Positions 5,997-57,580 of a stretch of DNA of 64,000 nt are shown here, in pieces. This DNA is from a virus (taxonomy: Duplodnaviria > Caudoviricetes), in the IMG/VR virus record IMGVR_UViG_3300028805_000086, positions 1-64,000 of that record, one strand, 5' to 3'. Position numbers and translations under genes: made by a program. Every line of letters begins with the position of its first letter. The stretch's first letter is position 1. The notes below the pieces were generated by a model. That model was given only the letters and a program-made list of their open reading frames with translations, was not told where the DNA came from and searched no databases.

Positions 5997-7307
5997 TTGG
6001 CTGAAATGAATCAGGATGCACTGTCTTTTGGTCAAAGACTAAAACATGCATGGAATGTATTTACTGGTAGAGATCAGCAGAGAATCTTTCAACAAGATCT
6101 TGGTGCCTCCTATTATACTCGACCCGATAGAGTTCGTCTTAAATTAGGAAATGAACGAACTATATTGGCTAGTATTTATAGCAGAATTGCAATCGACGCC
6201 GCTAGTGTTAAAATTCAGCATGTACGTCTTGATGACTCAGATCGGTATATAGAGACTATTGATTCTGGTTTAAATTATTGTTTGAATGTAGAATCAAATA
6301 TTGATCAAACATCACGAGCGTTTAAACAAGATTTATACATGAGCATGCTGGATGAAGGGGTTGTGGCTGTTGTACCTGTAGATACTAGTTATAATCCTAT
6401 GGATACCAGTAGTTTTGATATTAATAGCCTTAGAACTGCTAAAATCTTGGACTGGTATCCGCAACATGTGCGACTTGAAATTTATAATGACCGAACGGGT
6501 CAGAAGGAAATTAAAATTCTTCCAAAAGAAACAGTCGCAATTATAGAAAACCCTCTTTATGCTGTGATGAACGAACCGATTTCTACTTTGAAACGGTTAA
6601 TTCATAAATTGAATTTGCTGGATAATGCCGATGAACAAAGCCTTAGTGGAAAATTGGACTTGATCATTCAATTGCCATACCCGATCAAGACTGAAATGCG
6701 AAGGCAGGAGGCAGAAAAGCGTCGTCGAGATATCGAAACGCAATTAACCAGCAACCGGTATGGCATCGCTTATACTGATGGAACCGAAAAGATAACTCAG
6801 TTAAATCGTGTTGTCGAAAATAAACTCATGGACCAAATCGAGTACTTTACGAGCATGCTATACAGCCAGTTGGGGATGACGAGGGAAGTCTTTGAGGGTA
6901 CTGCCGACGAACGAGTTATGTTGAATTATATCACTCGGACCATCGAGCCTCTTGTTGCTACTACCGCAGATGAGCTTAATAGAAAATTTCTAACAAAAAC
7001 AGCTCGAACAAGACATCAGCAAATAATGTATTTCAATGACATCTTCAAACTGGCGACTATGGACTCTATTGCGTCTGCTGGAAGCCAGTTGGTTGTTTCT
7101 GAAGTCATTACTAAGAATGAGCTTCGTCAAAAGATGGGTTACAAGCCTGTTAATGATCAAGCCGCAGATCAGCTGATGAACCCCAATATTAATCCTCAAA
7201 ATGGAAGCCAGATTCTATCAAGCGGGGAGAATACTGTGAATTTAACAAAGGATAGCGGTAGCGAGGGAATCAGCCTCTCTGAAATGAAGGTATCAGAGAT
7301 TATGTAA
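5997..7307 (+). CDS. Portal protein
   Basis: 436 aa between terminase and protease; SIYSRIAIDAA and ITKNELRQKMGYKP portal-type motifs. Confidence 0.9.
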   Translation: MAEMNQDALSFGQRLKHAWNVFTGRDQQRIFQQDLGASYYTRPDRVRLKLGNERTILASIYSRIAIDAASVKIQHVRLDDSDRYIETIDSGLNYCLNVESNIDQTSRAFKQDLYMSMLDEGVVAVVPVDTSYNPMDTSSFDINSLRTAKILDWYPQHVRLEIYNDRTGQKEIKILPKETVAIIENPLYAVMNEPISTLKRLIHKLNLLDNADEQSLSGKLDLIIQLPYPIKTEMRRQEAEKRRRDIETQLTSNRYGIAYTDGTEKITQLNRVVENKLMDQIEYFTSMLYSQLGMTREVFEGTADERVMLNYITRTIEPLVATTADELNRKFLTKTARTRHQQIMYFNDIFKLATMDSIASAGSQLVVSEVITKNELRQKMGYKPVNDQAADQLMNPNINPQNGSQILSSGENTVNLTKDSGSEGISLSEMKVSEIM

Positions 7308-7336
7308 TATTGCATAATCGGAAAGGACGAAAACGT

Positions 7337-9247
7337 ATGAAGAACAAACAATTTGACTTCGGCGGTTGGGCGACTAAAAATGATCTGCTCTGCGCCGATG
7401 GCAGAACCATTCGGAAGGACGCCTTCAAGGATGATGACGGTCGAACGGTTCCGCTTGTATGGCAGCATAATCATGATGATCCTACAAGAGTGATCGGTCA
7501 TGCTCTGCTGGAAAATAAGGAAGATGGCGTATATGCTTATTGCTCTTTTAATAATTCTGAACTTGGTCAGCATGTTAGAGAGCTGGTACGGCACGGTGAT
7601 GTTCGTAGTCTTAGCATTTATGCAAATCAGCTGAAACAGCACGGCGGCGATGTAGTTCATGGAGTTATCCGTGAAGTTAGCGTCGTTCTTGCTGGCGCGA
7701 ATCCTGGCGCAATTATTGAGTTCCCAATGCTCGCCCATGGCGAAGAAGCTACGGATGAGGCTGTGATTTGGAGCGGTGATGATATCGAACTCGACGATGA
7801 TCTGGCACACGCCGAAAATGATGAAAACGACTCCGAATCTGAAGAAGAACTCGCTCATGCGGATGATAAAGAATCTGAAAAGGGCGAAGATGAGGAAACT
7901 ATTCAGGACGTTCTTGACTCAATGAATGAAAAACAGCGCAAGGTTGTTGAGTATTTGGTTGGTCAGGCCCTGGAATCTGCTGAAGAAGAAAAAGCAGAGC
8001 ATGATGGAATGGAAGATGAAGAAAATCTGAGCCATTCCGATGATGAAGAAAATGACGAATCTAAAGAAGCTGATGATGCCGAATCCGAAAATGAAGAGGA
8101 GACTAAAGAAGAGGCTTCTGAAGAAGAAGTTGAACATTCTGATAATGAAGGAGAGGAATTCACTATGAAAAAGAATCTGTTTGATAATGATACTGCGAAT
8201 GAGAAGGAAGAGAACACCCTGACTCATGCACAGCTGGATACCTTGATTAGAGATGCAAAACGGCTCGGCAGTTTCCGTGCTTCCATTCTGGAGCATGGTG
8301 ATGACGATGAGCCTATTCATGTGCCCGCTACTTATGGCATTGACCATATTGATTACCTGATGCCCGAATATAAAGAGATTGGTAATGCTGCTCCTCAGTT
8401 TATCAAAAGGGATCAGACCTGGGTTGCGAAAGTGATGCAGGGTGTCCATCATATTCCGTTTAGCAAATTTAAGACTACTTTTGCTGACATTACTTCTGAT
8501 GAAGCTCGTGCCCGGGGCTATATTACCGGACATCGCAAGACTGAAGAAGTGTTCACTCTGCTTCGTCGGACCACTGATGCTACCACGGTTTACAAGAAGC
8601 AGAAGATGGATAGGGACAATGCTCTTGAAATCACAAGCTTTGACGTTATTGCCTGGCTGAAGAGCGAGATGCGGATGATGCTGGATGAGGAATTGGCTCG
8701 TGCTTTCCTGGTTGGTGATGGTCGTGATCCGTCTTCTGACGATAAGATTAATGAGTTGAACATTCGCCCCGTTCTGCGGGATGATGCTCTGTTCGTTGTT
8801 CGTCAGGAACTGGATCCTACCGGTGATTTGATTGATGCTGTGACTTATGGCTGGGAGAATTATCAGGGAAGTGGCAATTGCGTTGCTTTCATGACTCGGC
8901 ATACTTATAGTGGCCTGAAGTTGATGAAAGATAAGATGGGTCGTCGGATTTATGAAACTGATAGTGCTATCGCTAGTGCTCTTGGTGTTCGCGAAGTTAT
9001 CTTTGTGCCTCAGATGGGCGATGCTACTTCCGTGCGCGTTTCCGGTAACAAGACTTACAAGCCACTGGTTATCATTATGGACCTGAGTGATTATACGGTC
9101 GGCGCTGATAAGGGCGGCAGCATTAATATGTTCGAGGACTTCGATATCGACTACAACCAGATGAAGTATCTGATCGAAACTCGTTGCTCTGGTGCTCTGG
9201 TTAAGCCCTATAGCGCGATCGTGGTTGAGGAAGAAGTAAACCCTTAA
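7337..9247 (+). CDS. Prohead protease - acidic linker - HK97-fold major capsid fusion
   Basis: N-terminal FGGWAT...VPLVWQHNH...LSI...IREVSVVLAGANPGA (HK97-type protease). D/E-rich linker, then capsid domain. Possible internal RBS and ATG at 8165. Confidence 0.9.
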   Translation: MKNKQFDFGGWATKNDLLCADGRTIRKDAFKDDDGRTVPLVWQHNHDDPTRVIGHALLENKEDGVYAYCSFNNSELGQHVRELVRHGDVRSLSIYANQLKQHGGDVVHGVIREVSVVLAGANPGAIIEFPMLAHGEEATDEAVIWSGDDIELDDDLAHAENDENDSESEEELAHADDKESEKGEDEETIQDVLDSMNEKQRKVVEYLVGQALESAEEEKAEHDGMEDEENLSHSDDEENDESKEADDAESENEEETKEEASEEEVEHSDNEGEEFTMKKNLFDNDTANEKEENTLTHAQLDTLIRDAKRLGSFRASILEHGDDDEPIHVPATYGIDHIDYLMPEYKEIGNAAPQFIKRDQTWVAKVMQGVHHIPFSKFKTTFADITSDEARARGYITGHRKTEEVFTLLRRTTDATTVYKKQKMDRDNALEITSFDVIAWLKSEMRMMLDEELARAFLVGDGRDPSSDDKINELNIRPVLRDDALFVVRQELDPTGDLIDAVTYGWENYQGSGNCVAFMTRHTYSGLKLMKDKMGRRIYETDSAIASALGVREVIFVPQMGDATSVRVSGNKTYKPLVIIMDLSDYTVGADKGGSINMFEDFDIDYNQMKYLIETRCSGALVKPYSAIVVEEEVNP

Positions 9248-9366
9248 CGCCCCCTTCTGATGTCGGCAATGAAGGGGACAATACTCCAGGCGAGTCCGAC
9301 AATACGGATCCTACTATTACAGATCCTACTAATACGGATCCTACTAATACAGATCCTACTAATTAA
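9238..9366 (+). other. -1 programmed ribosomal frameshift signal and capsid C-terminal extension
   Basis: Slippery A AAC CCT (9238-9244). Pseudoknot stems 9251-9257/9271-9277 and 9261-9266/9296-9301. The -1 frame is open to TAA 9364-9366. Confidence 0.75.
9301..9363 (+). repeat. 15-bp tandem repeat x4 (AATACRGATCCTACT) encoding (N/I)TDPT
   Basis: Directly visible; in frame with the -1 extension. Confidence 0.9.
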
Positions 9367-9395
9367 TTCAAAATGGAAGTAAAGGAGGCATCGCT

Positions 9396-10026: not shown

Positions 10027-10047
10027 TAATTTAAGGAGGAAAATACT

Positions 10048-10731: not shown

Positions 10732-10747
10732 AATTAATTGTCAATCT

Positions 10748-10795
10748 TGGGCCCTCTTCTATAAATGGGGAGGGCCCATTTATTTAATTTTTTAT
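10748..10795 (+). terminator. Rho-independent terminator
   Basis: tgggccctc...gagggccca followed by a T-rich tract. Confidence 0.8.
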
Positions 10796-10824
10796 TTACG
10801 GTATTTGAAAGGAGAAAAATAAAA

Positions 10825-11295: not shown

Positions 11296-11301
11296 TAAAT
11301 T

Positions 11302-11844: not shown

Positions 11845-11859
11845 AGAGGAGGTGCCCTT

Positions 11860-12243: not shown

Positions 12244-12244
12244 C

Positions 12245-15200
12245 ATGCCTGGAAAAGACACACGTGTTGTTGAAATGCAATTTCAAAATAAAGATTTTGA
12301 GAAGAACATTGCAACCAGTCAGAAATCTCTTAATAGATTCAAGAAAGATCTGAACTTCGATGACACCTCCAAAGGCCTCGAAAAGTTCGGCAAAAGCATG
12401 GACTCTTTAAAATTCGATAAATTCTTTGATAATATTCAAAGACTTACCGATAAATTTACAGGAATCGGCGATATCGGTGAATTTATGATTTCAAAGATTC
12501 GTCATTCTTTAGAAGAAGCTGCAAATAGTGCTATAAGATTCTCTAAAAGTCTCACTTTTGATCAGGTTGATGCTGGTAAAGAGAAATTTGAACAACTTAA
12601 TAAGAGCATTCAGACGATTAAAGCAGCTACTGGAAAAACAGAAGAAGAAGTACAGGGTGTTCTTAAGCGTTTGAATGATTATACTGATATGACAAGCTAT
12701 AGTTTTTCAGATATGGCTTCGAATATTGGTAAATTTACTTCTGTTGGTATTCCGCTTGAACAAGCAGAAAAACAGATGGAAGGTATTGCTAACTGGGCCG
12801 CTCGTTCTGGTGCTGGTATAGCAGAAGCTTCTCGTGCTATGTATAATTTAAGCCAGGCAATGGGTGTTGGTTCATTGAAATTGATGGACTGGAAATCCAT
12901 TGAGAATGCTGGTATGGCGACCAAAGAGTTTAAACAACAGTTAATCGAAGCTGGATTGGCTGCTGGCACATTGGTTGCCGAAGCGAAAAAAGATGCTAAT
13001 GGCGTGGAACAGATTGTTTACAAAACTGCTAAAAATTTAGGTAAGCAGGTCGAAGTAAACTTTCAAAATATGTCTCAGACCTTAAGTAAGGGATGGGCCA
13101 ATACAACAGCCATTGGTAATGCTTTGCTTGGATATTATTATGAAGATCTTAAGTTCGAGAACGAAGAAGGAATGAAAGATCTTACGGACGATCAGAAGAA
13201 AATGTTTGATGAAATGTTCAAACAGTATGGCAAGATTGATGATAAATCTTGGAAAAAACTTTCTGATCAGGGTCTTGGCTCCGATGATCTTAAGCAAAGT
13301 TTATTGGACACTGCTGAAGCTATGGGTGCTTTAACTGCAGAAGTTAATGCTGATGGCAAAAAGATTTATACAACTACTGATAAGACTGGAAAGAAGATAG
13401 AATTTACTCTTGATACTTTTGAAAAAGGTCTTGGTGGTGGCTGGTTAACTCGTAGTATTGCCAAAACAGTTTATTCATTTGATGACCTTGCTAAAGGTTC
13501 TTATGATGCTGCTATGAAGTGCCTGTCTTTCACCGATGTACTAAATGCCTGGAAAGATATGATTAGTACAGGATGGATGGCTTCAATTCAGCATATATTT
13601 GGTGGATTGTCTGATTCCATAGAAGTATTTACAGCGATGTGCGATAAAGCTGGAGAAATGCTAGGTAACATATTCGGCGTAAATGGTGCTATTAATAAAA
13701 TACTCGGTTTGTGGGATACAAAAGAGCACCGTGATACTTTATGGGGAATGATCATTGGTGAATATGGTGAAGGCGAAGACAAACTTTATGCAGGCGCTTA
13801 TGGTTTATTAGATGTAATAAAAGATGTTGGCAGTATTATTTCTGGAGCTTTCTGGGATATAATGAAAGACTTCGCCGAACCATTTTATGGCGAGGATAAA
13901 CTTGAAGAATGGGAAAACGATACTGAAGTTCGATATCAATTTCTTGCAGATCAAATGCAAGTATTTGTTGAAAAAATACGTTATGCTATTCTTAATATTA
14001 AAGAATTCTTTCAGGAAATACCAGAAGGCGCATCCAAGAGTCGCTGGGAAACGATTAAAGATATTGTCGGTGCTGTTTTTAGAGTAGTAAGTATTGCTGC
14101 ACAAACGATTAGCGGTATATTTACATTCTTTGGCAAAATTAAAAAGCAACTAGAGCCAAGTATAATAGCAGTTTCTGATTTGATTACTTCTTTGGCTGGC
14201 GGTATTACAGGCGCTGAGAAAGATTTACGTAAATCGAAAGGCATTCAAACATTCTTTTCTAATTTTGCCGATGCTCTAGTTCCAGTAACTAATTTTATTA
14301 ATAAGGTAGTCGTAGGTTTAGCTAAATTAATAAAAGGTTTCTTTGAATGGGGAATAGAAGGCGGTAACTTCATAAAAATATGGGAAACCATAAAGTCTGT
14401 ATTCAAGGGAATTATTAATATATTTGACAAGATCAGTGGTCCAATTTTAGACTTCTTTAAAGAGATTGGCCCTGCAATTGGAGATTTCTTTACTAAAGGG
14501 CTCAATAAAGATACTTTAAAGAATTTTGGAAAAACTTTAGGCAAGTCATTAGGTAATCTTATAAATACTCTTGTTAATTATATTCCTGGATTATGGAGTA
14601 AAATTAAGAATTTCTTCTCAAGTATCTTTAATACAGCAAAAGACGTGCTTGGTGCTGAAGAACCTGGAATATTGAATTCAATTATTAACTTTATAAAAGG
14701 CGTATTTGGCGGAGTTTGGGAATTCTTAAAGAATCTTGGAAATCGTTTATCTGATGAAAATTCTTTAGCAAGTCTTATATTACGACTTCTTGGAACTGGA
14801 ATTGGATTTGTTGCTGATTTATTAGGTAAAATTCGTGATTCAATAAGCGGTATTTCATTATACGATGTCGTAATAATGATTACTGGTGGTTTTATATTGT
14901 TTACTGCATTTTCACTTATTAAGTCAGCGCTTAATGTTATTAGGGGCATTTCCGAAATTGTTGGCGGTTTTGGAGAAATTTTAGATGCTATTGCATATCG
15001 AATCAGAGGTGTTGACAGTAGCGAAAAGTTCCTTCGTGTGTCACAAGGAATTGCACTTATTGCATTAGCTGTCGTTGTATTAGGGCAGATGAAGTGGCAA
15101 GAAGCCCTTCAAGGTGTTATTGCTATTGGTGCAATCGGCGGTATTGTTATACTTTTAACGAAAGTAATGACAAAAATGCTTGAGAAAGTTAAATTCTCAA

Positions 15201-24357: not shown

Positions 24358-27300
24358 TGTTTAAAATTTATGCAATGCATTTTAATCAAAATGGAAGTAT
24401 ACAGGAAGCAAAAACACTGATTCAATCAATTCCGGCAACTGATGAAAATGGTATTTATTTATTAAATCCTAAAGTTACAACTAAGGTTGGTAGTGCTGAA
24501 AGTTTTGATTTTAGTTTGCAGCCGGGCACAAAATATTACGATGCCTTTATTCAGCTTAGAACATATTTCTATGTTGAATATGATGGCGATTTGATATTTT
24601 ATGGTCGTGTTTTGACAATCGAAAATGGCTTTTGGGGCGAACAACAAGTCAAATGCGAAGGTGCTTTTGCTTTCTTTAACGATAGTTATTTTCCAAGTGA
24701 TGAGGAATCTAAACGTCCGATTCGTTCGACTGCCGAGTATATCACGGCAGTACTAGAGAATCATAATACGCAGCTTCATGACCCTTTACGGTATGTTTAT
24801 CCTGGAGAGATACCAGGAATGTATACTAATGCTACCTCCGTCGAACAAAGAGTAGAAGAAGATAGTAGAGCATTCGGTGAGAATGGATGGCGTCAAACAA
24901 AAGCAGCTCTCGATGATCTTACAAGTCATTATGGTGGGATGTTTAGGATTCGTCATGGAAATGATGATAAATTATATTTGGATTGGTATAAGCATTATTA
25001 TAATGCTACAATTAGCGATCAAATTATAGAAGTGAGTAAAAACCTGATCGATGTAACTCGTATTACTGAGGTTAATAATATATTTACGGTTGTTGTTCCA
25101 ATTGGAAAAGGCACAAGTGAAGACACAAAATTGTATATTGATGGAATGTATTTTCCGGTGAGTAGAGTAAGCGAATTTTATACGCCTGAAGAATTACGAT
25201 CCGGGTATCATTTACCTGAAGATTATGCACAAGCTGAAAGCAGATACGGTATTATTATCAAGCCTCAGGAATTTAATGAGTGCACCACTCAAGATGAATT
25301 ACTTAGAGAATGTGCGAAATGGGTAAAAGAAAATTATCAGGGCGGAATAGAAGAATTTTCAGTTTCAGCGGTCGATCTACATCAGCACGGTGTCGATGTA
25401 CGAAAAATTATGTCTGGCGATAGGAATATTATTCGATATCCTATTGGCAATGGAAAAACTGCGGATCGAACACTTACTTGCACATCGGTATCATTCGAAC
25501 TTTATAATCCTGAAAATAATCAATACACTTTTGGGATTCCTGCAAGTTCATTAAGTAAAGGATATAGTGTAACTTCTAAGAAAAGTGATAAAGATGCTGA
25601 TGATATTATTAAAGATATGCCTACTCCTGGTGGAGGTGGCGGAAAAATACCGAATCCTTATGAAGAGTGGTATGATGATACATTAGCTTGGCTGAAAAGT
25701 CATCGTGTTTGGTGGGCTCATTTGACAACTGATGAAAAAAATAGGTTTCCTCGTGGGTCAGGCCCGAATGGTAATACAATTACTAGTAATTTTATTTATG
25801 ATATTGCTCAAAAAGATGCTGATGGTGATGCATTAACTAATATTTGGGTTCCATATTTTGAAAGAACTCACAATGTAGGAACTGCGAAAGAACCTAAATA
25901 CATATATGACTGGCGTATTGTTGGCGGAAGACCAACTGGAAGATGGAAAAGTATAAAAAGAAAAAAGCTAAAAGATTATTCATATGATCTGAAGAGCGAT
26001 CATTTATTTGAGTATGTATATAATGAATGGAATAAGAAAAACTTTTCCAGTGATATGCCATTATTTAATCCAAGTAATCCTGAAGAAATTTTTAGTATGC
26101 TAAATGAATCCGGTTTCACTTTTGATACTGGAGCAATTGACAAGTATTTGAATATTGGCGATACTATAATGAGCGCCTTAAGTCCTAAGAATCTTCTTGG
26201 TTTAGGTGAAGGCTCATGGGGAGATTTCATTGTTAATAAATTAGATGAATGGGGACTCGGCGATAATCCAGTTGTCATTAAAGGAAAAGAGTTTATTAAC
26301 AGCCTTGATGAAAAAGTTAATAACATATTTTCATTTGGCGATGGAAATTACAGTTTAGGTGCTTTAAAAGAAGATCTTGAAGGTAAATTCGATTTTAAGC
26401 AGATACTTGTTGATGCTGCCAATGGATATCTTGAAAGCTCGGGCGATATTCACTGTGGTGGTGATATTACTTGGTTTGATGATATGGGCGATCTTGCAAG
26501 TGCTAAGGAACTTCAAATCGAGGCAATTAATACTAAAACTGAATTTGGTAGTTTGGTTAATGACTATTTTACGAATCCGATTACAGGAGAACGAGAAATT
26601 TATGCTTATAAATTTTCACAAGCTATAGAAGAGTACGCTAATGGTCAATTGGTCGTAGCGACTGTCGACGGTAATGTTGTTAAACTTGGTGGTAACCACA
26701 CAGCTAGTGTAATAACCACTGCTCTTAATAATATTTCAAATGTTTGTGGTGAATTTACATATTCAGTTGACCCAAATACCGGAGAACGTAAAGTTGTTTT
26801 GCATAATGGAACCGGTATGTTTATGACTAGAAATAATACACAATATGGCGTATTTGATGATGGTAATCTTACAGCCGGTGTTATGGTTGAAAAATTTGAA
26901 GATATAACTGAAACCGATAGAGTAAAAGCTCGAACTAGTTTTGGATTCTATGATAATGATACTCTTACCGGCGGCATAATGGTTGAAAAACTAAACGATA
27001 ACACCGTAACAACCCATATCAAGGGCGATCGGGTTATTGTCGGAACGGTTGACGATCAGACAGCCCAGACAATGCAGAGCAAGTTCGGGGAACTGGACGG
27101 TCTGGTGGCGGCAAAAGCTACGATCGGGCAGTTAAATGCATTAAGTGCAAGGGTTGGCGATATTGAGGCTGATTATATTACTACTCAGAATTTGGTGACC
27201 GAAGTAGCAAGAGCTACCAAGATTACAACCAGAGCCCTTGACGTTGGAGGAAATCTCCGCGTCGTCGGTGATCAGGGAAATGCGTACACTGTTACATTTG

Positions 27301-29076: not shown

Positions 29077-29100
29077 TCAAAATGGAAGGAGAAGACGGCA

Positions 29101-32655: not shown

Positions 32656-33030
32656 ATGTGGATCTATGCTAATCCGAATCCTTTACGTAAACAAGTCCCA
32701 GATTGTGTAATTCGAGCTATATGCATAGCACTCAATAAGAGTTGGCTAGAAGTATACGACGATTTATGCAATCTGGGACGTTCTGAGTTTAATATGCCTT
32801 CAGCAGATGTTGTCTGGGGCAAATACCTTTATCAATTAGGCTTCGAGCCTTTTTTACTACCCTATAGTTGCCCAAGATGTGTGACTATTAGAGAGTTTTC
32901 TAAAATATTTCAAAATGGAACCTATATTATTGGCACAGGCAGTCATGCCGTGGCTATAATTAATGGTAATTATTACGATAGCTGGGATAGCGGAGATGAA
33001 ATTCCCAGTTTCTTTTGGAAAATAACATGA
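32656..33030 (+). CDS. Conserved-looking protein with Cys/His/Asp motifs (papain-like peptidase fold possible)
   Basis: NPNP...DCVIRAI...GSHAVAI...YYDSWDSG. Confidence 0.65.
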   Translation: MWIYANPNPLRKQVPDCVIRAICIALNKSWLEVYDDLCNLGRSEFNMPSADVVWGKYLYQLGFEPFLLPYSCPRCVTIREFSKIFQNGTYIIGTGSHAVAIINGNYYDSWDSGDEIPSFFWKIT

Positions 33031-33050: not shown

Positions 33051-33542
33051 ATGCCAAATTATTACAATCCGAATTTATTCTATCCAGCTACTTATCAGAA
33101 TGCATATTCTAATCCTGTATATCCTCTTCCTCAACAACAGGTTGCTCAATCTGGCATGGCTATGACTGACGACCTTGTTATGAAGTGGGTAGATGGAGAA
33201 GTTGGTGCTAAAGCATTTCAAATGCCTCCGGGATGGCCGGCAAATAAGCCAATTCCACTTTGGGATAGCACCGATACGAATGTGTTTTTGAAAAGTTGGA
33301 GCCCTATGGGCTTTCCGAATCCTATTCAGAAACTTCATTACACGATGCCTGAGCAGCAAGCACCTTCTGTTTTGCCTGCAGGACAAAGTGGACAGACCTC
33401 TGAAGCGTCAGCTCCTGATATGAGCCAGTATGTTACAAAAGACGATTTGAATCAAATGAAACAAGAAATCCGTAATATGCTGAACAATCAAAATGGAAGA
33501 GGAAATCAGCGAAATGATGGAAACAGAGGTGAGAATCGATGA
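33051..33542 (+). CDS. Pro/Gln-rich hypothetical protein
   Basis: WVDGEVGAKAF...LWDS...YVTKDDL. Confidence 0.7.
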   Translation: MPNYYNPNLFYPATYQNAYSNPVYPLPQQQVAQSGMAMTDDLVMKWVDGEVGAKAFQMPPGWPANKPIPLWDSTDTNVFLKSWSPMGFPNPIQKLHYTMPEQQAPSVLPAGQSGQTSEASAPDMSQYVTKDDLNQMKQEIRNMLNNQNGRGNQRNDGNRGENR

Positions 33543-36365: not shown

Positions 36366-36379
36366 AGGAGGAAATCAAA

Positions 36380-36745
36380 ATGGAAGTAAAAAAGCATGAA
36401 ATGCTAGAGCAGAAAATGTGTAAAGAACTGGATATGCTTGAAGAAAAGATGAGAACTGGCGGAGAAATGAGCATTCAGGATCTCGATAAGATTGATAAGC
36501 TTTATCATGCATTGAAGAGTATGGCTACTTATAATGCTATGAAAGAAGCTGAAGAATATGGATATTCTGAAGATGGAATGAGTGGTCGTCGTGGACGTGA
36601 TGCTTCTACTGGAAGGTATATTAGTCGGGATGATGGCAGAAGTTATACCGATGGGTATTCCAGGGGATATTCTGAAGCGATGAATCAAATGAATAATAGC
36701 GGACATTACCCTCCTATGCCTGATTATACTCCTCGGCGGTGGTGA
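36380..36745 (+). CDS. Hypothetical protein
   Basis: Helical N-terminus; RGRDASTGRYISRD motif; RBS aggagg. Confidence 0.7.
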   Translation: MEVKKHEMLEQKMCKELDMLEEKMRTGGEMSIQDLDKIDKLYHALKSMATYNAMKEAEEYGYSEDGMSGRRGRDASTGRYISRDDGRSYTDGYSRGYSEAMNQMNNSGHYPPMPDYTPRRW

Positions 36746-37484: not shown

Positions 37485-38264
37485 ATGGCTGATATTTCAA
37501 AAATTGTAACTACTTCTGGCGATTCATATGATATTAAAGATGCGATTGCCAGAACTGACTTAGAGTTGAAAGCGCCTAAAGCGAATCCGGTATTTACTGG
37601 ATCGATAAGTCTTGGAAGAACCAGTGGAACCAATGTCGGTTCGAATTCAGTAGCTCTTGGTTCTGGTATAATTTCTTCCGGGTATTATACTTTTGCAGAA
37701 GGTTATGGAACAACTTCTTCGGGTATAGCGTCACATGCTGAAGGATGGTCTACAATTGCTAAAAATACAGCATCTCATGCTATGGGTATGAGTACTGTTG
37801 CTAATGGAAATTATTCATTAGTGTTTGGTAAGCAGAATGTTCCCGATAGTATTAACAATTTTCCGCTTTGGGAAGCCAATACTTATTACAAAGTCGGTGA
37901 CATAGTAAGACGTTCTGATGGATATACTGCATATTGTAAAACAGCTCATACCAGTCAGCAAACATATAATGCGGATAGTAATAAATGGGAACCATCTCTT
38001 GGACTATATAAATATGTAGAAATTGTTGGGAATTGTTTGGATGGGGTTTCTTCGCATGTATCTAATGCTAGAGCTTTGGATTGGCATGGAAATGAGCATT
38101 TAAATGGTGATCTATATATTAAATGTAATTCTGATTCATCGAACGGCATCAAAGTTTCTGATGGTTTGCTGAGTACGACAGATAGAACTAAATTAAATAA
38201 TTTGAAAACTGTTAGCATTACTTACAATTCTTCTGATGACTGTATAGAAGTCGCGTATACATAA
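37485..38264 (+). CDS. Fibre/adhesin with Hep-Hag (YadA-head-like) repeats and a small carbohydrate-binding-like module
   Basis: SHAEG/FAEG/SHAMG repeats; WEANTYYKVGDIV...YCKTAHTS. Confidence 0.7.
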   Translation: MADISKIVTTSGDSYDIKDAIARTDLELKAPKANPVFTGSISLGRTSGTNVGSNSVALGSGIISSGYYTFAEGYGTTSSGIASHAEGWSTIAKNTASHAMGMSTVANGNYSLVFGKQNVPDSINNFPLWEANTYYKVGDIVRRSDGYTAYCKTAHTSQQTYNADSNKWEPSLGLYKYVEIVGNCLDGVSSHVSNARALDWHGNEHLNGDLYIKCNSDSSNGIKVSDGLLSTTDRTKLNNLKTVSITYNSSDDCIEVAYT

Positions 38265-38375: not shown

Positions 38376-38421
38376 TTCTAATAAAAATTCAAAATGGAAG
38401 TATAAAAGGAGCGACAAATAC

Positions 38422-39927
38422 ATGGAAGAACAGATTTATAGGTTTTTGTGGGAGCGTATAGGCAATCCCATAGGGGTATGCGCGTTAATGGGAAATCTTT
38501 ATGTAGAAAGTCATTTGAATCCCGGATTGTTAGAAGATAGCAAAGCTAAAAAAATGGGAATTACTTCTGAAGAATATGCACGAAAGATTGATTCAGGAGA
38601 AATTGATTGTGAAAAATTCAGTCATGATGGTGCCGGATATGGTCTTGGACAATGGACATACTGGAGTCGTAAAAAGGGATTGTACGAGTATGCCAAGAAA
38701 ACAGGAAGATCGATTAAAGATTTAAATATGCAGCTTGAATATCTTTGGAATGAAATCCAGACGTATAAAACAGTTGTAAAAGCCATGCTTTCCGCTACAA
38801 ATCTTAGAGAAGTTTCTGATGTTATTGCTTTGAAATATGAAAAACCGGCTCATACTGAAGAGAAATATCTTCAGAACAGGGCAAACTATGGACAAAAGTA
38901 TTATGAAAAATATGGAATCAAAATGGAAGAGAAGGAGGTCAAGATGACTATGTATTCTGCTAATTATGTCGATCAACAGATCGAGGTCATTAAGAACAAA
39001 GGTATTCCACTTTCTGACAAAGCTTGGGAATTGGCTAAACTATGTCTTGAATGGGCATATGTGTTTGGTGCATATGGTGAATATTGTGATCCATCCAACC
39101 GTAGAAGTAGGGCTCGTGATGATCATCCTACAATTAAGTCCAGGTGTAAGAATTTTAACGGACGGGATACCGTTCCTTCCGGATGTATGGGTTGTAAGTG
39201 GTTCCTTGGAAGTGCTAGTTCCGATGAATCAAAGCATGAAGGACGTACAAGATTCTTCGATTGCCGAGGATTTGTGTATTATGTGCTACATAAAATGTTT
39301 GGGTTCTGGAGTAAATGTCCTGCAGGAGCGACTTCGATGTGGAATACTGACAGCAATTGGGAATCTAAAGGCTTGATCAAAGATGGTGTTCCTAATGATA
39401 CATTGGTGTGTCTGTTCTATCAGAGTAAATCTGATCCACGAAAAATGGAGCATATCGGGTTTGGCTATAAAGGTGAAACTATTGAATGCTCAAATGGAGT
39501 CGAATACCACAGCACTTATAATAAGAAGTGGACGCATTGGGCTGTTCCGAAGTGCGTAGTTGGATCGGGTGAAACTATTCCTATGCCAGCACCTGCTGAC
39601 GACATGCCAACTGGTTTCCCGACACTTAGACAGGGAGCAAAAGGCGATATCGTTAAAACTATGCAGAAAATGCTTTCCGATAGTGGTAGTACATTGACTA
39701 TTGACGGAATCTTTGGAAGCGGAACAGCCAGCGCTGTAAGAGCTTTCCAGAAGAAATACGGTTTGTCTATCGATGGCATCGTTGGACCTAAGACCTGGGC
39801 AAAATTGATTGAGGTTTCAAAAACAGTAATCGACAAAGGTCTTTATACGGTGACTTTGGTTCATGTTCCTTCAAAAGAAGCCGATGAACTAGTTAAAAAG
39901 TATGGCGGTCAAGCCACTGCTGAATAA
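38422..39927 (+). CDS. Endolysin: phage-tail-lysozyme + NlpC/P60(CHAP)-like + peptidoglycan-binding domain
   Basis: ALMGNLYVES...GYGLGQWT; FDCRGFV...HIG; LRQGAKGDIVKTMQ...DGIFGSGT...FQKKYGLSIDGIVG. Possible internal start at 38944. Confidence 0.9.
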   Translation: MEEQIYRFLWERIGNPIGVCALMGNLYVESHLNPGLLEDSKAKKMGITSEEYARKIDSGEIDCEKFSHDGAGYGLGQWTYWSRKKGLYEYAKKTGRSIKDLNMQLEYLWNEIQTYKTVVKAMLSATNLREVSDVIALKYEKPAHTEEKYLQNRANYGQKYYEKYGIKMEEKEVKMTMYSANYVDQQIEVIKNKGIPLSDKAWELAKLCLEWAYVFGAYGEYCDPSNRRSRARDDHPTIKSRCKNFNGRDTVPSGCMGCKWFLGSASSDESKHEGRTRFFDCRGFVYYVLHKMFGFWSKCPAGATSMWNTDSNWESKGLIKDGVPNDTLVCLFYQSKSDPRKMEHIGFGYKGETIECSNGVEYHSTYNKKWTHWAVPKCVVGSGETIPMPAPADDMPTGFPTLRQGAKGDIVKTMQKMLSDSGSTLTIDGIFGSGTASAVRAFQKKYGLSIDGIVGPKTWAKLIEVSKTVIDKGLYTVTLVHVPSKEADELVKKYGGQATAE

Positions 39928-41026: not shown

Positions 41027-41272
41027 ATGTTCTATTTGTTTACCAAATTCCCTATAAAGATTAAGGATCAAGGAAAACGAGTTGGCGAAATCTCAAAAAT
41101 GCTTTCAAAGCATGGATCTAAGATTAAATATACTGAAATATACACGATTGGACTTCAAAGTGCAGTGATTAGTTTTCAAAAGAAGCACGGCCTTGAACCA
41201 ACAGGTGTAGTCGACAAAACTACTTGGAAAGCCCTTCATAAGAAAATCAAAATGGAAGTAAAAATCGCATAG
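41027..41272 (+). CDS. Peptidoglycan-binding-domain protein
   Basis: AVISFQKKHGLEPTGVVDKTTWKAL. Confidence 0.75.
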   Translation: MFYLFTKFPIKIKDQGKRVGEISKMLSKHGSKIKYTEIYTIGLQSAVISFQKKHGLEPTGVVDKTTWKALHKKIKMEVKIA

Positions 41273-43332: not shown

Positions 43333-43424
43333 TGGAATAAGAACCAAAGAAAGGTTATGTAATGATAGACCCGCGTCTATCGATAATTGCAAGTGCGGAC
43401 TTGCGACATATCCTTTCTTTTTTT
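43333..43424 (+). ncRNA. Putative small structured RNA 1
   Basis: After motif 43309. Closing stem gaaaggttatgt/acatatcctttc encloses hairpins gatagac/gtctatc and gcaagt/acttgc; T-tract follows; no convincing ORF. Confidence 0.6.
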
Positions 43425-43470
43425 CAAAATGGAAGTAAAAATAACCTCGCACCATTAACATGTTTATTAA

Positions 43471-45618: not shown

Positions 45619-45738
45619 TTATTATAAATAAGAGCTCCTGAAACAAGGACTCTTATTTTTTTTCATTCAAAATGGAAGTTGTACGAAAGTGTACGGACGT
45701 TTTTAAAACATTCTCCAAAACGAAAGGGGAGTGTTGAC

Positions 45739-46872
45739 ATGGAACTTCAAGATATTTATGATTTATTGGAATCGCACCTTGGCAATGGAATATTAAACCG
45801 CTCAAACGAGAAAATGAAAAGAGTTAAACTTCCGATTCCAAAGGAATATGGTGGCGGATGGGCAACTGGCGATACCACAGAAGATGCTATCCGCAACATG
45901 ATTAATCGTTTAAATCTGAAAATTAAAAAAGAAACGCCGTTATTTTCTGATTATGCTAGCAAATGGTTAGAGATAAAGAAAGGCGAGGAACGATCGGAAT
46001 CAACAATTAAGAACTATGAATTCATACTCGAAACTCGCCTTAAACCATTTTTCGAAAATAAGAAAATTAATGAGATTACAGCCGATGATGTACAGCTATA
46101 TTTTAACAGTATAATAGATCTCAGCAAGAGTATGAGCGTGCAAAGTAAAGCAATACTCAGTGGAATCTTCGAAAGAGCAGATCGTAATGGTCTTGTTGAC
46201 AGAAATATTATGAAATACAAGTATCAGACTAGCTCTAAAACTGGTGAGAAAGTAGTTCTCCAGGATGATGAACTCATAAATGTTATTGATAAGCTCGAAG
46301 ATTTGTTATCGACAGGCGACGTACGAGACTATCTATACTTCTGCTTTTTGTGTTTTACAGCGCTTCGAAGAGGGGAAATTCTGGGTCTTAAATGGGCAGA
46401 TATCGACTTTGATAACGATTTGATTTACGTGAATCGCAATGTTACGTTTCCAAATGGCGAAAATAATTATCGAATTGGCAAGCCTAAAGATGGTAGTTCT
46501 GGCATTGTGCATCTTCAAAGTGGATTAAAAGATCATATTCTCAGTTATAAAGGTTCTTCTAAAGAGTACATCATATATAATAGGAAAGAATTCAAAATGG
46601 AACCAATAACCAGGAGTATGTTTTCTAAAATGTGGTATAGATGCCAGAAAGTTCTGGATCTTAAAGGTGCAACGTCACATAGTTTCAGGGCGTCGTATGC
46701 TACGATGATGAATGCGCATTGTGATCACATTGATCCTAAGGCTTTACAGGGAGCTTTACGACATAAAACGCCAGATTTGGCTATTAAAGTCTATACGAAA
46801 GAGAATCATGATAAAACCAGAGCTGCTGAGAAAGAATATGATGATTGGCTTAAGCGAAATTCCGCACTCTGA
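45739..46872 (+). CDS. int: Tyrosine recombinase/integrase
   Basis: SAM-like core-binding region; catalytic TALRRGEILGLKWADIDF, K (PKD), HSFR, LRH, VY. Confidence 0.95.
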   Translation: MELQDIYDLLESHLGNGILNRSNEKMKRVKLPIPKEYGGGWATGDTTEDAIRNMINRLNLKIKKETPLFSDYASKWLEIKKGEERSESTIKNYEFILETRLKPFFENKKINEITADDVQLYFNSIIDLSKSMSVQSKAILSGIFERADRNGLVDRNIMKYKYQTSSKTGEKVVLQDDELINVIDKLEDLLSTGDVRDYLYFCFLCFTALRRGEILGLKWADIDFDNDLIYVNRNVTFPNGENNYRIGKPKDGSSGIVHLQSGLKDHILSYKGSSKEYIIYNRKEFKMEPITRSMFSKMWYRCQKVLDLKGATSHSFRASYATMMNAHCDHIDPKALQGALRHKTPDLAIKVYTKENHDKTRAAEKEYDDWLKRNSAL

Positions 46873-47730: not shown

Positions 47731-47984
47731 ACAATGGAAAAGAAGGGGACACAAAACGTGTTCTCTTCACTTTTTCAAAAATGCATAATTATACAATTCA
47801 TATGGAACAAAAAATTGGATAATAAGAAAAATGCTGGAATGCTTATATTTCAAAGGAAAGAGGCGATTTAAAGAATTCAAAATGGAATAGAAAATGGAAT
47901 ATTTTAGGATTGTTAAGTGTACGGACGACTATTTCTAGGTAAATGAAAAACCCCGGAAGCCTTGATATTCTTGACTTCCGGGCC

Positions 47985-48028
47985 GTACACCATTAGGGAC
48001 TCGAACCCTAGACACCCTGATTAAGAGT
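47985..48028 (-). other. attP core: 3' half of tRNA-Lys(CTT)
   Basis: Minus strand ACTCTTAATCAGGGTGTCTAGGGTTCGAGTCCCTAATGGTGTAC gives the anticodon loop (CTT), T-arm and 3' acceptor strand; the 5' half is absent; near int. Confidence 0.85.
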
Positions 48029-48121
48029 TAGGAAAAATGTATAATTATGCATTGATCTATAAAATATTCATATAATATACAAAATGAAAGGAGAAGGGCG
48101 GTTTATATTCCGCGATTTTTT

Positions 48122-50595: not shown

Positions 50596-50724
50596 ACCGT
50601 ATAATATAGACTATCGTCAAAGGACATAGTCTATATTTTTTCAAAATGGAAGTAAAAACCATCTCGCGTGATCAACATGCTTATTAATGGAAACTATACT
50701 ACTATTTTAAGGGAGGCAAATCTT

Positions 50725-52093: not shown

Positions 52094-52462
52094 ATGGACA
52101 GCATGTTTGCGTTTGTTCTTGGAGAAATGAATCGGCACAAAGAGCTGATGGTGTTCGATTGGGACAAAGCAGCAGAGATCATTAAGGAAAGAAAAGCTAC
52201 CAGTGCTATTGCTGGGTTACAGAATGATCTCGAATGGACGGGAGGACATATTTTGGACGGAGGGAAACCAATTGCTGATTCATATACGTATTTATCATCG
52301 ACTTGGGCTATGCCTGTTTTAATTCTTGATGATGAATATGAAGATGAAATACCATGTTTCAAAATGGAGCATGAAACAGCATATACTTGCGATACTAAAT
52401 GGCCTAATTCAGCATTAAACATTTTAGGATTAACGAAGGAGGATTTTGTATGCAAGGAATAA
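52094..52462 (+). CDS. Hypothetical protein
   Basis: VFDWDKAAEIIKE...AGLQNDLEWTGG; aggagg RBS. Confidence 0.75.
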   Translation: MDSMFAFVLGEMNRHKELMVFDWDKAAEIIKERKATSAIAGLQNDLEWTGGHILDGGKPIADSYTYLSSTWAMPVLILDDEYEDEIPCFKMEHETAYTCDTKWPNSALNILGLTKEDFVCKE

Positions 52463-52830: not shown

Positions 52831-52849
52831 ATTCAAAATGGAGGTAAAA

Positions 52850-53227: not shown

Positions 53228-53233
53228 TGAATT

Positions 53234-53836: not shown

Positions 53837-53920
53837 TCGCACAAGAAACATGGATTTAAATAGGAAGAGATGACAAAACGTCGTCTCTTCTATTTTTTCA
53901 AAATGAAAGGAGAAAGGATT

Positions 53921-54523: not shown

Positions 54524-54605
54524 GTATTCAGGGGCTGTGAAATTAAGTAGCAGCCCCTTTTAAAATAGATATTTTAGAGAAAGGAGCATGTATTTAAACT
54601 AAAAA

Positions 54606-55070: not shown

Positions 55071-55086
55071 AGAAAGGAGAATCAAA

Positions 55087-55362
55087 ATGGAAGGCGTTTA
55101 TTATAAATGCCCTAATTGTGGGAGCTATGTTTCGGACAATTCTGAAAAAGATATTTTGAAATGCGAACATTGTGGAACGACTATTACAAAACCATATACG
55201 TGGTATGATAAAAGCCTTCAATTTCTTTATAGGCGAGCAAAAGCTAAAGAAAAATTGGAGCAGGAAAAAATAGCCCGCGAAGCAAAAGCCGCAAAGATTT
55301 CTGCATGGGGGCTTTGCATCACGTTAGTCTGCGCGATTATTATGGTATTAATATTTGCATAA
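55087..55362 (+). CDS. Zn-ribbon protein with C-terminal TM
   Basis: CPNCG...CEHCG; hydrophobic C-terminus. Confidence 0.75.
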   Translation: MEGVYYKCPNCGSYVSDNSEKDILKCEHCGTTITKPYTWYDKSLQFLYRRAKAKEKLEQEKIAREAKAAKISAWGLCITLVCAIIMVLIFA

Positions 55363-55438
55363 TGTCGCACGAGAAACACGTGTATAAATAGGAGATAACG
55401 AAACGTTGTCTCTTTAATTTTTTACAAATTGGAGGAGA

Positions 55439-55960: not shown

Positions 55961-55967
55961 CAAATTC

Positions 55968-56462
55968 GATGGCAGCTAATGTGATTTACTACTTTTATAA
56001 AAGATTGATAAAGACAATCGCATAATTACGCCATCCCGTAAAGCACTGGATTCTAATCTTAAAAGCTAAATTGGCTTACTTCACATAATACTTTAAATAT
56101 TAAATAGTCAATTAATTTCTTTACAGATTAGAAACCAGTCATGAGGAAGCTATTCAAACTTACTACTACTTTTAAAAAGATGCTTAAAAATAGTTTGAAA
56201 ATCTCTCCTCAAATCACCTCCTTTATTCCTAGCTAGTGTTGCTTACTTCATTGGCGGATATGAAGCAGCACAATATCAGGAGGTGCACTATTCTGGAAGG
56301 ATCTTGGCAGCTAACATAATTTACTTCATAATTATAGATTTTTTATTATTCAATTATGTGCTTTCGCCAAGGTCCTTTCATTTCCTTTCTTTTTTGTAAG
56401 CTAACAGGGCTTACTTCACATAAATAAATTAATTTAATTCAGTCCTGTAATTTTATGCAAAA
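55968..56462 (+). ncRNA. Tandem array of six structurally identical RNA stem-loops
   Basis: Each unit: P1 stem, AGCTA, 8-bp P2, loop beginning TACT(T/A)C, P2', ~6-nt linker, P1'. AGCTA at 55974, 56064, 56148, 56231, 56309, 56399. Confidence 0.85.
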
Positions 56463-56488
56463 ATGATATTTGAAAGGAGCAAATCAAA

Positions 56489-57580
56489 ATGGAAAAGATT
56501 TTTAAGGACTATCTGTTTCAGCATCATATTTTGGTGTCTGAAAAAGAAGGCACTATTGGTGAGGCCTTCAACACAATCACTGCTCTAGCGAATGTTTACA
56601 GTATTCGCATTGTTAAAGGAGCAAAATATGCTTGTGAGAGCATGCTGCAGGATGCAGCCGATAATTTAGGAGATCGTGTACCAGAACCATTTTACAGAAT
56701 GTTTCCTAACTCTGTCAGAGCGATGACACCGGATCAACTGCTGTACGATCAGCTTTATCACTATACTCAGACGTATGGCATGGGCTGGTTCGATGCTCCA
56801 GCGGGGCATTCTATTTTCGAAGAAGAGACTCCTTCAGAAATGGCGGATGAGTCTAATCGCGAAAAATTCTTCGATAAAATGGTCGTAGAAAAATCCGAGG
56901 CTAAGAATTTTGTGATCATGACCGAAGACGATGCCGTTGCTAAATTGGTTGAATATCTTCGTGAATTGATCGAAAGTCCTCGACCTCTCAATGAAGGGCA
57001 AATGCGTTTTCTTTACGAAGGATTCATCAAATATGATACGGCAATTACTGCTAATACGAATATTCCTTGTAAAAGAATCGCAGTTGAGCTTTTCTATCTG
57101 ACAAAGAGTATTGTATTTGCTAAAAAGCTTAAGCTTAGTGATACCATTAAGCTTGTTGAATATATTCAGAATAACTTGTATGGAAGTACCGATCTTAAGA
57201 AGCTTAATTTCAAGAATAAAGATCGGAAATTAATCACTGCTTTTATTGATTATCATCTTTCCGCTGAGCATTTTGAAGGTTATAAAGAAGTTCGGAAAGC
57301 CTTCAATCAGCGTAAAATTTGGTGCGGCTTGCTGCATCATATTCATTATAAACCGAAAGGCCGGATTGCTCAGAAGTTTGTAAAAGATATTCGTGAAGGC
57401 AAAAATCAGTCTTTGAATAGTGGTTTCGAGCGGTGTATGCGCCATGATCGACCTGTAGAAGCTGCTGAATACCTTAAGAACAATGAAGGAAGCGGTGCAC
57501 TTATGAGAAATATGAATTATATTCTCAGTCGCTGCAAGAACGACAAGGAGATTGAGGAGGTGATCTCATGTCTGGAGTAA
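56489..57580 (+). CDS. Alpha-helical TROVE/Ro-like protein (tentative), N-terminal half of a TerD-associated family
   Basis: EPFYRMFP, LYDQLYHY, LNFKNKDRKLI, GALMRNMNYIL; overlaps the next ORF. Confidence 0.6.
   Translation: MEKIFKDYLFQHHILVSEKEGTIGEAFNTITALANVYSIRIVKGAKYACESMLQDAADNLGDRVPEPFYRMFPNSVRAMTPDQLLYDQLYHYTQTYGMGWFDAPAGHSIFEEETPSEMADESNREKFFDKMVVEKSEAKNFVIMTEDDAVAKLVEYLRELIESPRPLNEGQMRFLYEGFIKYDTAITANTNIPCKRIAVELFYLTKSIVFAKKLKLSDTIKLVEYIQNNLYGSTDLKKLNFKNKDRKLITAFIDYHLSAEHFEGYKEVRKAFNQRKIWCGLLHHIHYKPKGRIAQKFVKDIREGKNQSLNSGFERCMRHDRPVEAAEYLKNNEGSGALMRNMNYILSRCKNDKEIEEVISCLE

Follow-up and report, generated by a model that had tools for sequence, protein, structure and literature searches.

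What function could be served by a twelve-base word that a phage genome repeats thirteen times, always in the same orientation? The word in question, TCAAAATGGAAG (hereafter the 12-mer), was flagged in an earlier note on a 64,000-nucleotide stretch of tailed-phage DNA (Duplodnaviria; Caudoviricetes), the window of this report, which corresponds to bases 1-64000 of IMG/VR record IMGVR_UViG_3300028805_000086, a 95,642-bp virus record rated complete. That note took the word to be an oriented site under selection, an inference which is supported by the analysis presented here, and offered several possible roles for it. The motif is most likely a phage-specific transcription signal, of interest as a deeply conserved one. 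More specifically, we assign a probability of about 0.45 to the reading in which the 12-mer is the local form of a group-wide class of candidate late-region promoter, compact and with no -35-type partner.

Abundance, polarity and setting of the 12-mer

All 13 exact plus-strand positions originally listed were recovered, and counting on both strands of the window (13 versus 0) bears out the statement that the minus strand carries none. For comparison, dinucleotide shuffles yielded a mean of 0.01 copies and a maximum of one (n=100 shuffles). With up to one mismatch allowed, 19 sites are found in the window, again all on the plus strand, against an expectation of 0.94. The six one-mismatch copies lie at 32910, 46592, 47877, 52833, 53898 and 56484; that at 53898 had been missed, while two others formerly put forward as near copies fall outside the limit, the one at 52359 having two mismatches and the one at 780 sharing only the nine-base core, TCAAAATGG. 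This core is present 20 times in the window. The remaining 31.6 kb of the 95,642-bp record was also searched, and 57-95 kb contains no further copy of the 12-mer.

As was originally reported, the sites fall both in spacers and inside genes, in various reading frames. The claim that codon usage does not explain them was assessed quantitatively with a codon-aware null model, in which synonymous codons were permuted inside genes and spacers were shuffled. Over 300 trials this gave a mean of 1.26 and a maximum of five copies of the 12-mer, compared with the 13 observed, and a mean of 5.1 and a maximum of nine copies of the core, compared with 20. The model is conservative: true coding sites partly survive the shuffle, so that the mean of 1.26 overstates chance. 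The logo of the 12-mer has sharp edges, with A and W occupying positions -2 and -1 and a weaker T-A-A-A-A trailing the 12 bases, and there is no information content upstream of position -3. The consensus of the signal may be written A-W-TCAAAATGG-A/G-A-G.

All credible genes of the genome lie on the plus strand, and the polarity of the motif is therefore the direction of transcription; for the same reason, strand bias within this single genome cannot separate transcription from the polarity of replication or packaging. The relationship to gene starts is close. Nine of the 13 exact sites are positioned on, or no more than 75 nt upstream of, a predicted start codon, for a background of 13% (P = 5e-6). 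At 'upstream-type' sites (9368, 29077, 33488, 38389, 38918, 41247, 45667 and 50641) the motif stands behind a stop codon or terminator and 12-72 nt before a Shine-Dalgarno sequence (SD) and ATG, while at 'start-type' sites (36375, 55082 and 56484, plus the core-only copy at 780) the ATG within the motif is itself the start codon behind an SD. The distance from the end of the motif to the start codon thus ranges from overlap, with the ATG inside the motif, up to 72 nt, and most sites are accompanied by a separate SD.

Six sites lie directly behind a stable hairpin and T-run, three of them in the window (43424, 45667 and 50641) and three in relatives described below (G006 31040, G013 33569 and FP_oengus 6070). 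Terminator-like sites are five-fold enriched in 41-57 kb, a region in which sigma-70-like matches occur at the level of chance (63 versus 62.5). Between the terminator that precedes the integrase gene and the gene itself, the 12-mer at 45667 is the sole conserved element.

The strict polarity of the sites over some 50 kb could also suggest a signal for the handling of DNA, such as a Chi/KOPS-like word, a site-specific nick site of the kind known from T5-like and tf-like phages, or a short linker guiding recombination between modules; the Chi/KOPS-like and packaging versions of this idea were among the original proposals. Related rumen phage contigs indeed lose similarity exactly at four pairs of sites (36391>38384, 38400>45657, 38417>43415 and 41260>50636). 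The contig joints at 12-mer sites (36391, 38384-38417, 41260, 43415, 45657 and 50636) may be mosaic module boundaries or may be mis-joins at short repeats, but the joints rest on only 21-27 shared letters, too few for them to count as recombinants, and joints of this kind often derive from repeats or other organisms. Moreover, the sites are not spread over the whole replicon independently of gene boundaries, half of the genome having none, and known Chi/KOPS words are shorter than 9-12 bp. A DNA-handling role leaves both the strong tie to gene starts and the placement behind terminators unexplained, and we regard it as the faintest of the explanations considered here.

Conservation among polymerase-bearing relatives

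Beyond the window, the record encodes a primase-polymerase, a helicase, an exonuclease and, at 92403-95207, a 934-amino-acid protein which matches phrog_4291 over its full length (E = 0). In this protein GADFDGD at residue 544 corresponds to the catalytic loop of two-barrel RNA polymerases, and helix-turn-helix (HTH) hits are obtained at both ends. A sequence search against the PDB gave no match. Homologues were found by tblastn in about 250 GenBank phages, with hosts in Arthrobacter, Gordonia, Streptomyces, Rhodococcus, Microbacterium, Lactococcus and Faecalibacterium. The polymerase is the signature gene of a supercluster comprising Lactococcus phage 1706, Faecalibacterium phage FP_oengus and actinophages; Koert et al. 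defined this supercluster and predicted that the protein family is an RNA polymerase, which was never tested (10.1101/842583). A DNA similarity search of 36-43.9 kb of the window against the GenBank phage collection found no match.

Relatives were gathered through the window's terminase and through the polymerase, and were searched whole. In total 25 genomes or records, all entering as relatives by one of these two genes, were searched for the core (handles G001 and so on denote individual genomes); the polymerase gene was confirmed in all of them except G001, a 42%-complete fragment. The exact 12-mer is present in eight copies in G006 (101 kb) and seven in G007 (95 kb), in each case all on the coding strand. 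Across 16 genomes the core occurs 155 times on the coding strand and twice on the other, for an expectation of 12.2, and in G001-G005 the corresponding figures are 44 and 3. The cultured Faecalibacterium phage FP_oengus, with a G+C content (GC) of 49.8%, has the 10-mer 12 times versus once (expected 0.27). Among actinophages, coding-strand and other-strand counts of the core are 9 and 0 in ReqiPepy6, 6 and 0 in Damascus, 5 and 0 in Conley, and 3 and 0 in both HotFries and Nason, where the expected counts, for 20-60 kb of each genome, are 0.03-0.36. These actinophage genomes have 45-62% GC and in them the core mostly reads TCAAAATGGGAG. The bases following the core are specific to the lineage: GAAG here, GAAA in G011, GAAT in G012, GAG in FP_oengus and GCA in G010. 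Most of the genomes searched have the core enriched on the polymerase strand.

Where the sites lie is likewise preserved in outline. In every genome they populate the half lying downstream of the polymerase and terminase genes, and hardly any occur in the early, replication half. For the most part the core follows a stop codon or terminator and precedes a ribosome site by 6-75 nt, or else it falls on a start codon. In many relatives it lies 0-6 nt behind stop codons, that is, at gene ends, and in the annotated ReqiPepy6 genome four sites occupy spacers, where they trail a stop codon by 5-11 nt and precede the next gene by 6-38 nt.

This distribution bears on the proposal, made in the earlier note, that the sites are stoperator-like operators, at which an immunity repressor would block prophage transcription by binding asymmetric sites, as L5 gp71 does in Cluster A mycobacteriophages. 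The Cluster A stoperators are asymmetric words of 12-13 bp; a temperate phage has about 20-30 of them, which point one way relative to transcription and for the most part are placed in short spacers. They are mentioned in PMC3203893. The phage considered here is temperate, as its tyrosine integrase (45739-46872) and a probable attP near 48.0 kb indicate, and its sites also have 12 bp, asymmetry, some 20 copies and a single orientation, occupy mostly short spacers and in three cases abut promoter-like motifs. However, the core does not vary between Firmicutes phages and Actinobacteria phages, distances over which immunity specificities are not constant. It is also unchanged in six complete genomes, those of the five cultured actinophages and G006, in which no tyrosine or serine recombinase was found. 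Nor are the sites spread over early and late units: the early half is without them, both here (none in 57-95 kb) and in relatives. The HTH protein previously named as a candidate binder (62966-63907) has a homologue in fewer than three of the ten relatives compared, though most of these carry the motif. A stoperator role is accordingly a very improbable one.

Several sites can be followed gene by gene. At the protease-capsid gene the core coincides with the start codon in G013, FP_oengus, Nason, HotFries, Conley and Damascus, lies on or just before it in G012, and is upstream in the present genome and in G007; the non-coding TCAAA that precedes the start of the capsid gene persists in genomes ranging from 37 to 62% GC. 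The gene following the capsid gene has the core in eight of 11 genomes, and the position of the 9368 site in particular is kept in FP_oengus, G011, G010, G013, G014, G015 and Nason. Similarly, the 90-amino-acid gene at 33539 has the core in six genomes, with an orthologous site in G006, G007, G008, G010 and G011.

Two copies of the core lie within conserved coding sequence, where they encode SKWE in a tail-module protein and IKME in the terminase large subunit (TerL), hundreds of nt from any start. The actinophages encode these same peptides with TCA AAA and ATC AAA, respectively, despite TCA accounting for only 5-18% of their Ser codons and AAA for 5-39% of their Lys codons, while flanking synonymous positions vary freely. 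The conservation at synonymous sites for which the earlier note had proposed to look is thus present, and the retention of rare synonymous codons indicates that the constraint acts on DNA or RNA rather than on protein.

The promoter reading and its rivals

A k-mer screen with mapping revealed a second class of motif in the genome, 26 nt long and of the form YCGC-N6-AACA-N7-WAATR. Its 33 copies are all on the plus strand and all at 41-91 kb, extending from 41265 to 64103 in window coordinates and then recurring at 75578, 78999 and 91370 of the record, with none in 1-41 kb. Most are positioned between a terminator and an SD, and one copy heads the exonuclease-polymerase operon. They belong to early genes and small-gene cassettes, a pattern complementary to that of the late-half 12-mer. 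At 41247, 43424 and 50641 a 12-mer is found 6-11 nt upstream of a 26-nt motif. Between the 12-mer at 45667 and the integrase start there is no 26-nt motif.

The two classes share genomes, strand, an AAT-G(G)A(A)G 3' end and the slot between terminator and ribosome site. They differ in that the 26-nt motif has three rigidly spaced blocks over 26 nt and is found in early genes and cassettes, whereas the 12-mer has the 3' block only, preceded by an invariant TCAA, and is found at late genes. Alignment of the 26-nt copies on AAT shows the sequence continuing past the defining positions as G-G-A-A-G (24, 23, 25 and 15 of the 33 copies), giving an AAT-GGAAG in common with the 12-mer. In G007 and G008 the 26-nt motif ends in TATAAT-G and is followed directly by AAAGGAGG, which constitutes the SD, with the ATG about 8 nt later. 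In these two cases an RNA initiated in sigma-70 fashion, 7 nt beyond the hexamer, would lack the ribosome site, and the RNA must therefore begin approximately at that G. Both the shared GGAAG 3' end and this placement of the start in G007 and G008 are new here. Interchange of 12-mer and 26-nt motif before orthologous genes was also sought, but the single weak case, among paralogues of 24-30% identity, is insufficient to use.

The promoter reading rests on the late-half distribution of the motif, its slot behind terminators, the initiation core in common with the 26-nt motif and the tolerance of mid-gene copies. As would be expected of a promoter, the motif is preceded by a terminator or gene end and followed by the next gene's ribosome site, as seen in the nine of 13 exact sites, the six terminator sites and the ReqiPepy6 spacers. 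In the scheme that we propose, the AT-rich TCAAAAT would be melted and RNA would begin in or just after GGAAG, by analogy with the 26-nt motif, with messages beginning from a few to about 75 nt ahead of the next start codon. The 26-nt motif would constitute a first class of promoter, for early genes and small-gene cassettes, and the 12-mer a class serving capsid, tail, lysis and some cassette genes. Given that the motif is conserved from Firmicutes to Actinobacteria phages, its trans-acting partner must be equally conserved, and the polymerase is the obvious candidate: the most likely reader would be this single-chain two-barrel enzyme, alone or with a late factor, the alternative being host polymerase redirected by a conserved phage factor. 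It is possible, though doubtful, that the core is a universal late promoter of the HTH-flanked two-barrel polymerases, read by the polymerase itself and unchanged between Actinobacteria and Firmicutes.

Conventional promoter architecture does not account for the motif. It lacks sigma-70-type -35 and -10 hexamers 16-18 bp apart and the TG of an extended -10. CAAAAT keeps A-11 and T-7, yet has an invariant C at -12 and no TG. Comparison of the logo by eye with sigma-54 and extracytoplasmic function (ECF)-type spacings gave no partner element either.

A sheep-gut metatranscriptome provides a weak hint of transcription starts. RNA contigs stop at 38181 and the next begins at 38415, 15 nt after the site at 38389, leaving a 233-nt gap in the RNA, although contigs cannot show ends. 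Across this site contig depth, a poor measure, rises from 11.7 to 23.5. At three motifs of the 26-nt type, other RNA contigs begin 10-27 nt past the predicted starts, and DNA contigs are continuous through all the places at which the RNA contigs break. Parts of 36-56 kb have no RNA cover in metatranscriptome runs X3 and X7, from which nothing was inferred.

Several observations weigh against the promoter reading. In two cases an RNA contig begins 34-57 nt upstream of a 26-nt motif. Exceptions to the co-occurrence of polymerase and motif exist in G015, which has the polymerase with a single core copy, in the Lactococcus phage P092, with two copies of the 10-mer, and in a partial record with none. 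There is no conserved element further upstream, and 9-14 bp is very short for a promoter. In the GenBank annotation (ReqiPepy6) the polymerase homologue of Lactococcus phage 1706 is labelled a structural protein, and the polymerase may therefore be an injected early enzyme, in which case the late signal might be read by the host enzyme with a conserved phage factor. Finally, the ATG of the motif is the true start codon, behind an SD, at 36380, 55087 and 56489 and at the capsid gene of many relatives. A start at GG would remove this codon, so that sites of the start type need either a start in the A-run, yielding a near-leaderless message, or a role for downstream genes only. In some relatives, too, the GGAG of the motif resembles a working SD, 6-11 nt before the ATG, which would fit a role at the RNA level equally well.

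Such a role, in which the motif would be a start-associated element of the message, either a site for a conserved phage protein or a leader that loads ribosomes or enhances translation, is one of the two main rivals, if an unlikely one. At three to four genes in this genome, and at the capsid-protease gene of six or more relatives, the AUG of the motif is a real start codon behind an SD; at other sites an SD or start codon follows 6-75 nt further on. The 3' part of the motif resembles an SD (GGAG in FP_oengus, GGGAG in actinophages) and at some sites is spaced from the ATG by 6-11 nt. Something similar has been proposed for the start-associated sequences (SAS) found in Cluster K mycobacteriophages and in Microbacterium phages of Cluster EF, whose function is unknown: they too are asymmetric 12-13-bp words (SAS themselves being 13 bp long), occur in 10-19 copies in one orientation beside start codons, are partly SD-like and are conserved within a phage group (PMC3203893, PMC7302621). 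SAS are, however, fixed 3-7 bp before the start codon, at the position of the ribosome site, and belong to the non-structural half, whereas the present motif contains ATG, stands at a variable distance from the start codon, occupies the late half, shows synonymous-site retention of mid-gene copies and is conserved between host phyla. Further difficulties for an RNA-level role are posed by four of the sites. Those at 41247, 43424 and 50641, which are among the best copies, are just upstream of a 26-nt motif, two of them right behind a hairpin and T-run, and that at 45667 follows a strong terminator; unless transcription begins at the motif itself, few transcripts would be expected to include these copies. 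The mid-gene synonymous-site copies in TerL and the SKWE gene are remote from any start. By reasoning, rather than by computation against a host, the motif has no complementarity to the 16S 3' end beyond GGAG. Lastly, TCAAA is just the third commonest 5-mer ahead of starts in this genome, being found at four of 150 genes.

The possibility that a guide RNA pairs with the motif was also considered. The plus strand of the genome contains no complement of the motif that might serve as a guide RNA, even with four mismatches allowed over 17 nt. At 55968-56490, upstream of the gene starting at 56489, there are six hairpin units sharing AGCTA-N8-TTACT(T/A)C. Considered as guides, their loops match only GAAGTAA of the extended form of the motif, not the invariant core, and the match was judged to be due to chance.

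The other main rival is a sequence-specific pause or termination site for the phage polymerase, comparable to the class II signal of T7 RNA polymerase or to the sigma-dependent pause at -10-like words. A polymerase with its own recognition modules would stall at a non-template word resembling the promoter core, thereby insulating late genes against read-through from the early region or loading an elongation factor. This would accommodate AAT-GGAAG being common to the motif and the 3' core of the 26-nt motif, the location 0-6 nt behind stops in many relatives, the restriction of the motif to the region downstream of the polymerase operon in a genome whose genes are all read one way, and the tolerance and conservation of mid-gene copies. 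A pause directly behind a strong hairpin terminator would nevertheless be redundant, and genes behind terminator plus motif, such as the integrase gene, would be left without a promoter candidate; by the poor measure of contig depth, moreover, RNA goes up rather than down across 38389. We consider a pause site improbable. The antitermination site suggested in the earlier note falls alongside: an antitermination or pause-type role retains some plausibility, but a late transcription signal linked to gene starts fits better.

Among known systems, the motif behaves most like the promoters of phage polymerases, and looks most like SAS and stoperators while failing a defining feature of each of those two. 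The T7 class II and III promoters and the very short late promoters of the two-barrel polymerases of phiKZ and AR9 likewise occur in 10-20 copies along the direction of transcription, downstream of the polymerase gene and ahead of capsid and tail genes, often behind terminators, and have an AT-rich stretch followed by a G-rich start. The present polymerase is unrelated to that of T7, however, and only distantly related to the phiKZ and AR9 enzymes. The motif also departs from those promoters in its 9-14 conserved bp, the lack of an upstream specificity region, the second, longer class in the same genome and starts that are so far only predicted. A nearer parallel in some respects is YonO of the Bacillus prophage SPbeta, a single-chain enzyme with a DxDGD centre, encoded just upstream of the late operon and having a private late signal. 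YonO transcribes the late genes, and its promoter sequence was left undetermined (PMC5467207); we found no later literature settling it. SPbeta differs in having one mapped start for a single late operon. In the tblastn search with the polymerase no Bacillus phage appeared among the named groups, and neither the yonN-yonK gap of SPbeta, which contains the mapped YonO start, nor a 50-kb stretch of SPbeta has a copy of the motif, YonO being too distant to bear on the question. A full-text literature search for the motif string returned only primers and unrelated sequences and no phage paper, and literature on repeated motifs in these phage clusters yielded nothing specific.

Individual sites, neighbouring features and significance

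The copies of the motif in the window are collected in Table 1. The window encodes TerL at 2500-4242, the portal protein at 5997-7307 and a protease-capsid fusion at 7337-9247, followed by tail and fibre proteins and by an endolysin at 38422-39927.

Table 1. Copies of the 12-mer and its variants in the window, with their genomic setting
Copy	Position	Strand	Setting
Core only (9-mer plus GCG)	780..791	+	ATG at 785 is the start codon of an HNH endonuclease gene, behind SD
Exact	7196..7207	+	3' end of portal gene; 141 nt before protease-capsid start (7337)
Exact	9368..9379	+	Spacer behind capsid gene; 16 nt before ATG 9396 (phrog_4270 gene)
Exact	24386..24397	+	About 30-40 nt into gene for 1499-aa tail protein
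Exact	29077..29088	+	Right behind TAA stop; GGAAG merges into SD; ATG 29101 12 nt on
One mismatch	32910..32921	+	Within gene 32656-33030
Exact	33488..33499	+	Last codons of gene 33051-33542; 39 nt before ATG 33539
Exact	36375..36386	+	Own ATG (36380) starts a 121-aa gene, behind SD
Exact	38389..38400	+	Spacer preceding endolysin gene (ATG 38422)
Exact	38918..38929	+	Inside endolysin gene; own ATG in frame; SD and ATG 38944 downstream
Exact	41247..41258	+	6 nt upstream of 26-nt promoter-like motif (41265)
Exact	43424..43435	+	Right behind hairpin and T-run; 11 nt upstream of 26-nt motif at 43447
Exact	45667..45678	+	Right behind terminator hairpin and T-run; 60 nt before integrase start (45739)
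One mismatch	46592..46603	+	Within integrase gene
One mismatch	47877..47888	+	544-nt gap behind integrase operon, upstream of probable attP
Exact	50641..50652	+	Right behind terminator; 11 nt upstream of 26-nt motif at 50664
Two mismatches, core intact	52359..52370	+	Within gene 52094-52462
One mismatch (GGAGG)	52833..52844	+	Gene junction; possible starts ATG 52838 and ATG 52850
One mismatch	53898..53909	+	Behind hairpin 53863-53891 and T-run; ATG 53921 11 nt on
Exact	55082..55093	+	Own ATG (55087) starts a 91-aa gene, behind SD
One mismatch	56484..56495	+	ATG 56489 starts a 363-aa gene, behind SD

The copy at 53898 may represent only a common SD context. In the post-capsid spacer, three tandem 15-base units resembling GATCCTACTAATAC occupy 9323-9367, directly upstream of the 12-mer at 9368. 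The tail module contains a single open frame of 3877 amino acids (12245-23878), poorly conserved at 22-51% identity among relatives, whose product is presumably a giant tape-measure-like protein. Within the endolysin gene, the in-frame ATG 38923 of the 12-mer and the strong SD with in-frame ATG 38944 suggest, from the reading of internal starts at 38918-38946, a putative second, shorter product with the cell-wall-binding part.

A number of features cluster around the integrase. At approximately 47990-48032 the depth of DNA coverage rises 20-60-fold in two metagenome runs and many contigs depart from the phage sequence, with short loose ends that resemble the 3' end of a tRNA. This segment, in the 544-nt gap after the integrase operon, is probably attP, with a core in common with a host tRNA gene. 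The sole near-perfect sigma-70-type match in 41-57 kb (TTGACA, 17 nt, TATGAT) is located at 45734-45762, overlapping the predicted integrase start; it may be a promoter read by the host, or the true integrase start may be further downstream. Another short word, (G)TACGGACG(A), is found in 8-12 copies on the plus strand and once on the minus strand, at 45692, 47920, 13183, 53332, 54942 and 58542 and at more positions beyond 64 kb. Two of its copies lie 25 and 43 nt after the 12-mer sites flanking the integrase operon, and the word may be an arm-type site of the integrase or the site of another regulator. Towards the end of the window, the gene at 62966-63907 encodes a 313-amino-acid protein that fuses HTH_17, sigma-70 region 4 and an RNA polymerase alpha C-terminal domain, and which, to judge by these domains, could bridge DNA and the host polymerase.

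Single-chain two-barrel RNA polymerases, among them YonO, the crAss-like and phiKZ-type enzymes and the HTH-flanked family, are widespread in phages, and their promoters are largely unknown. A signal of 9-12 bases that does not vary between rumen phages and soil actinophages, and that keeps to the late genes, furnishes a concrete hypothesis for the late transcription switch, the two motif classes splitting each genome into an early and a late half. It can be tested directly, the motif being carried by cultured phages that include FP_oengus on Faecalibacterium and SEA-PHAGES phages of Arthrobacter, Gordonia, Streptomyces and Microbacterium. As an aid to annotation, it marks late transcription units and helps to fix gene starts throughout the supercluster. 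Even as an RNA-level element or a pause site, the motif would rank as a cis-element of unusually deep conservation. If it is a late promoter read by the phage polymerase, its 9-14 bp would make a minimal promoter and possibly an orthogonal expression part and, together with the early signal of 26-30 nt, it would provide a full early/late promoter pair for the HTH-flanked family.

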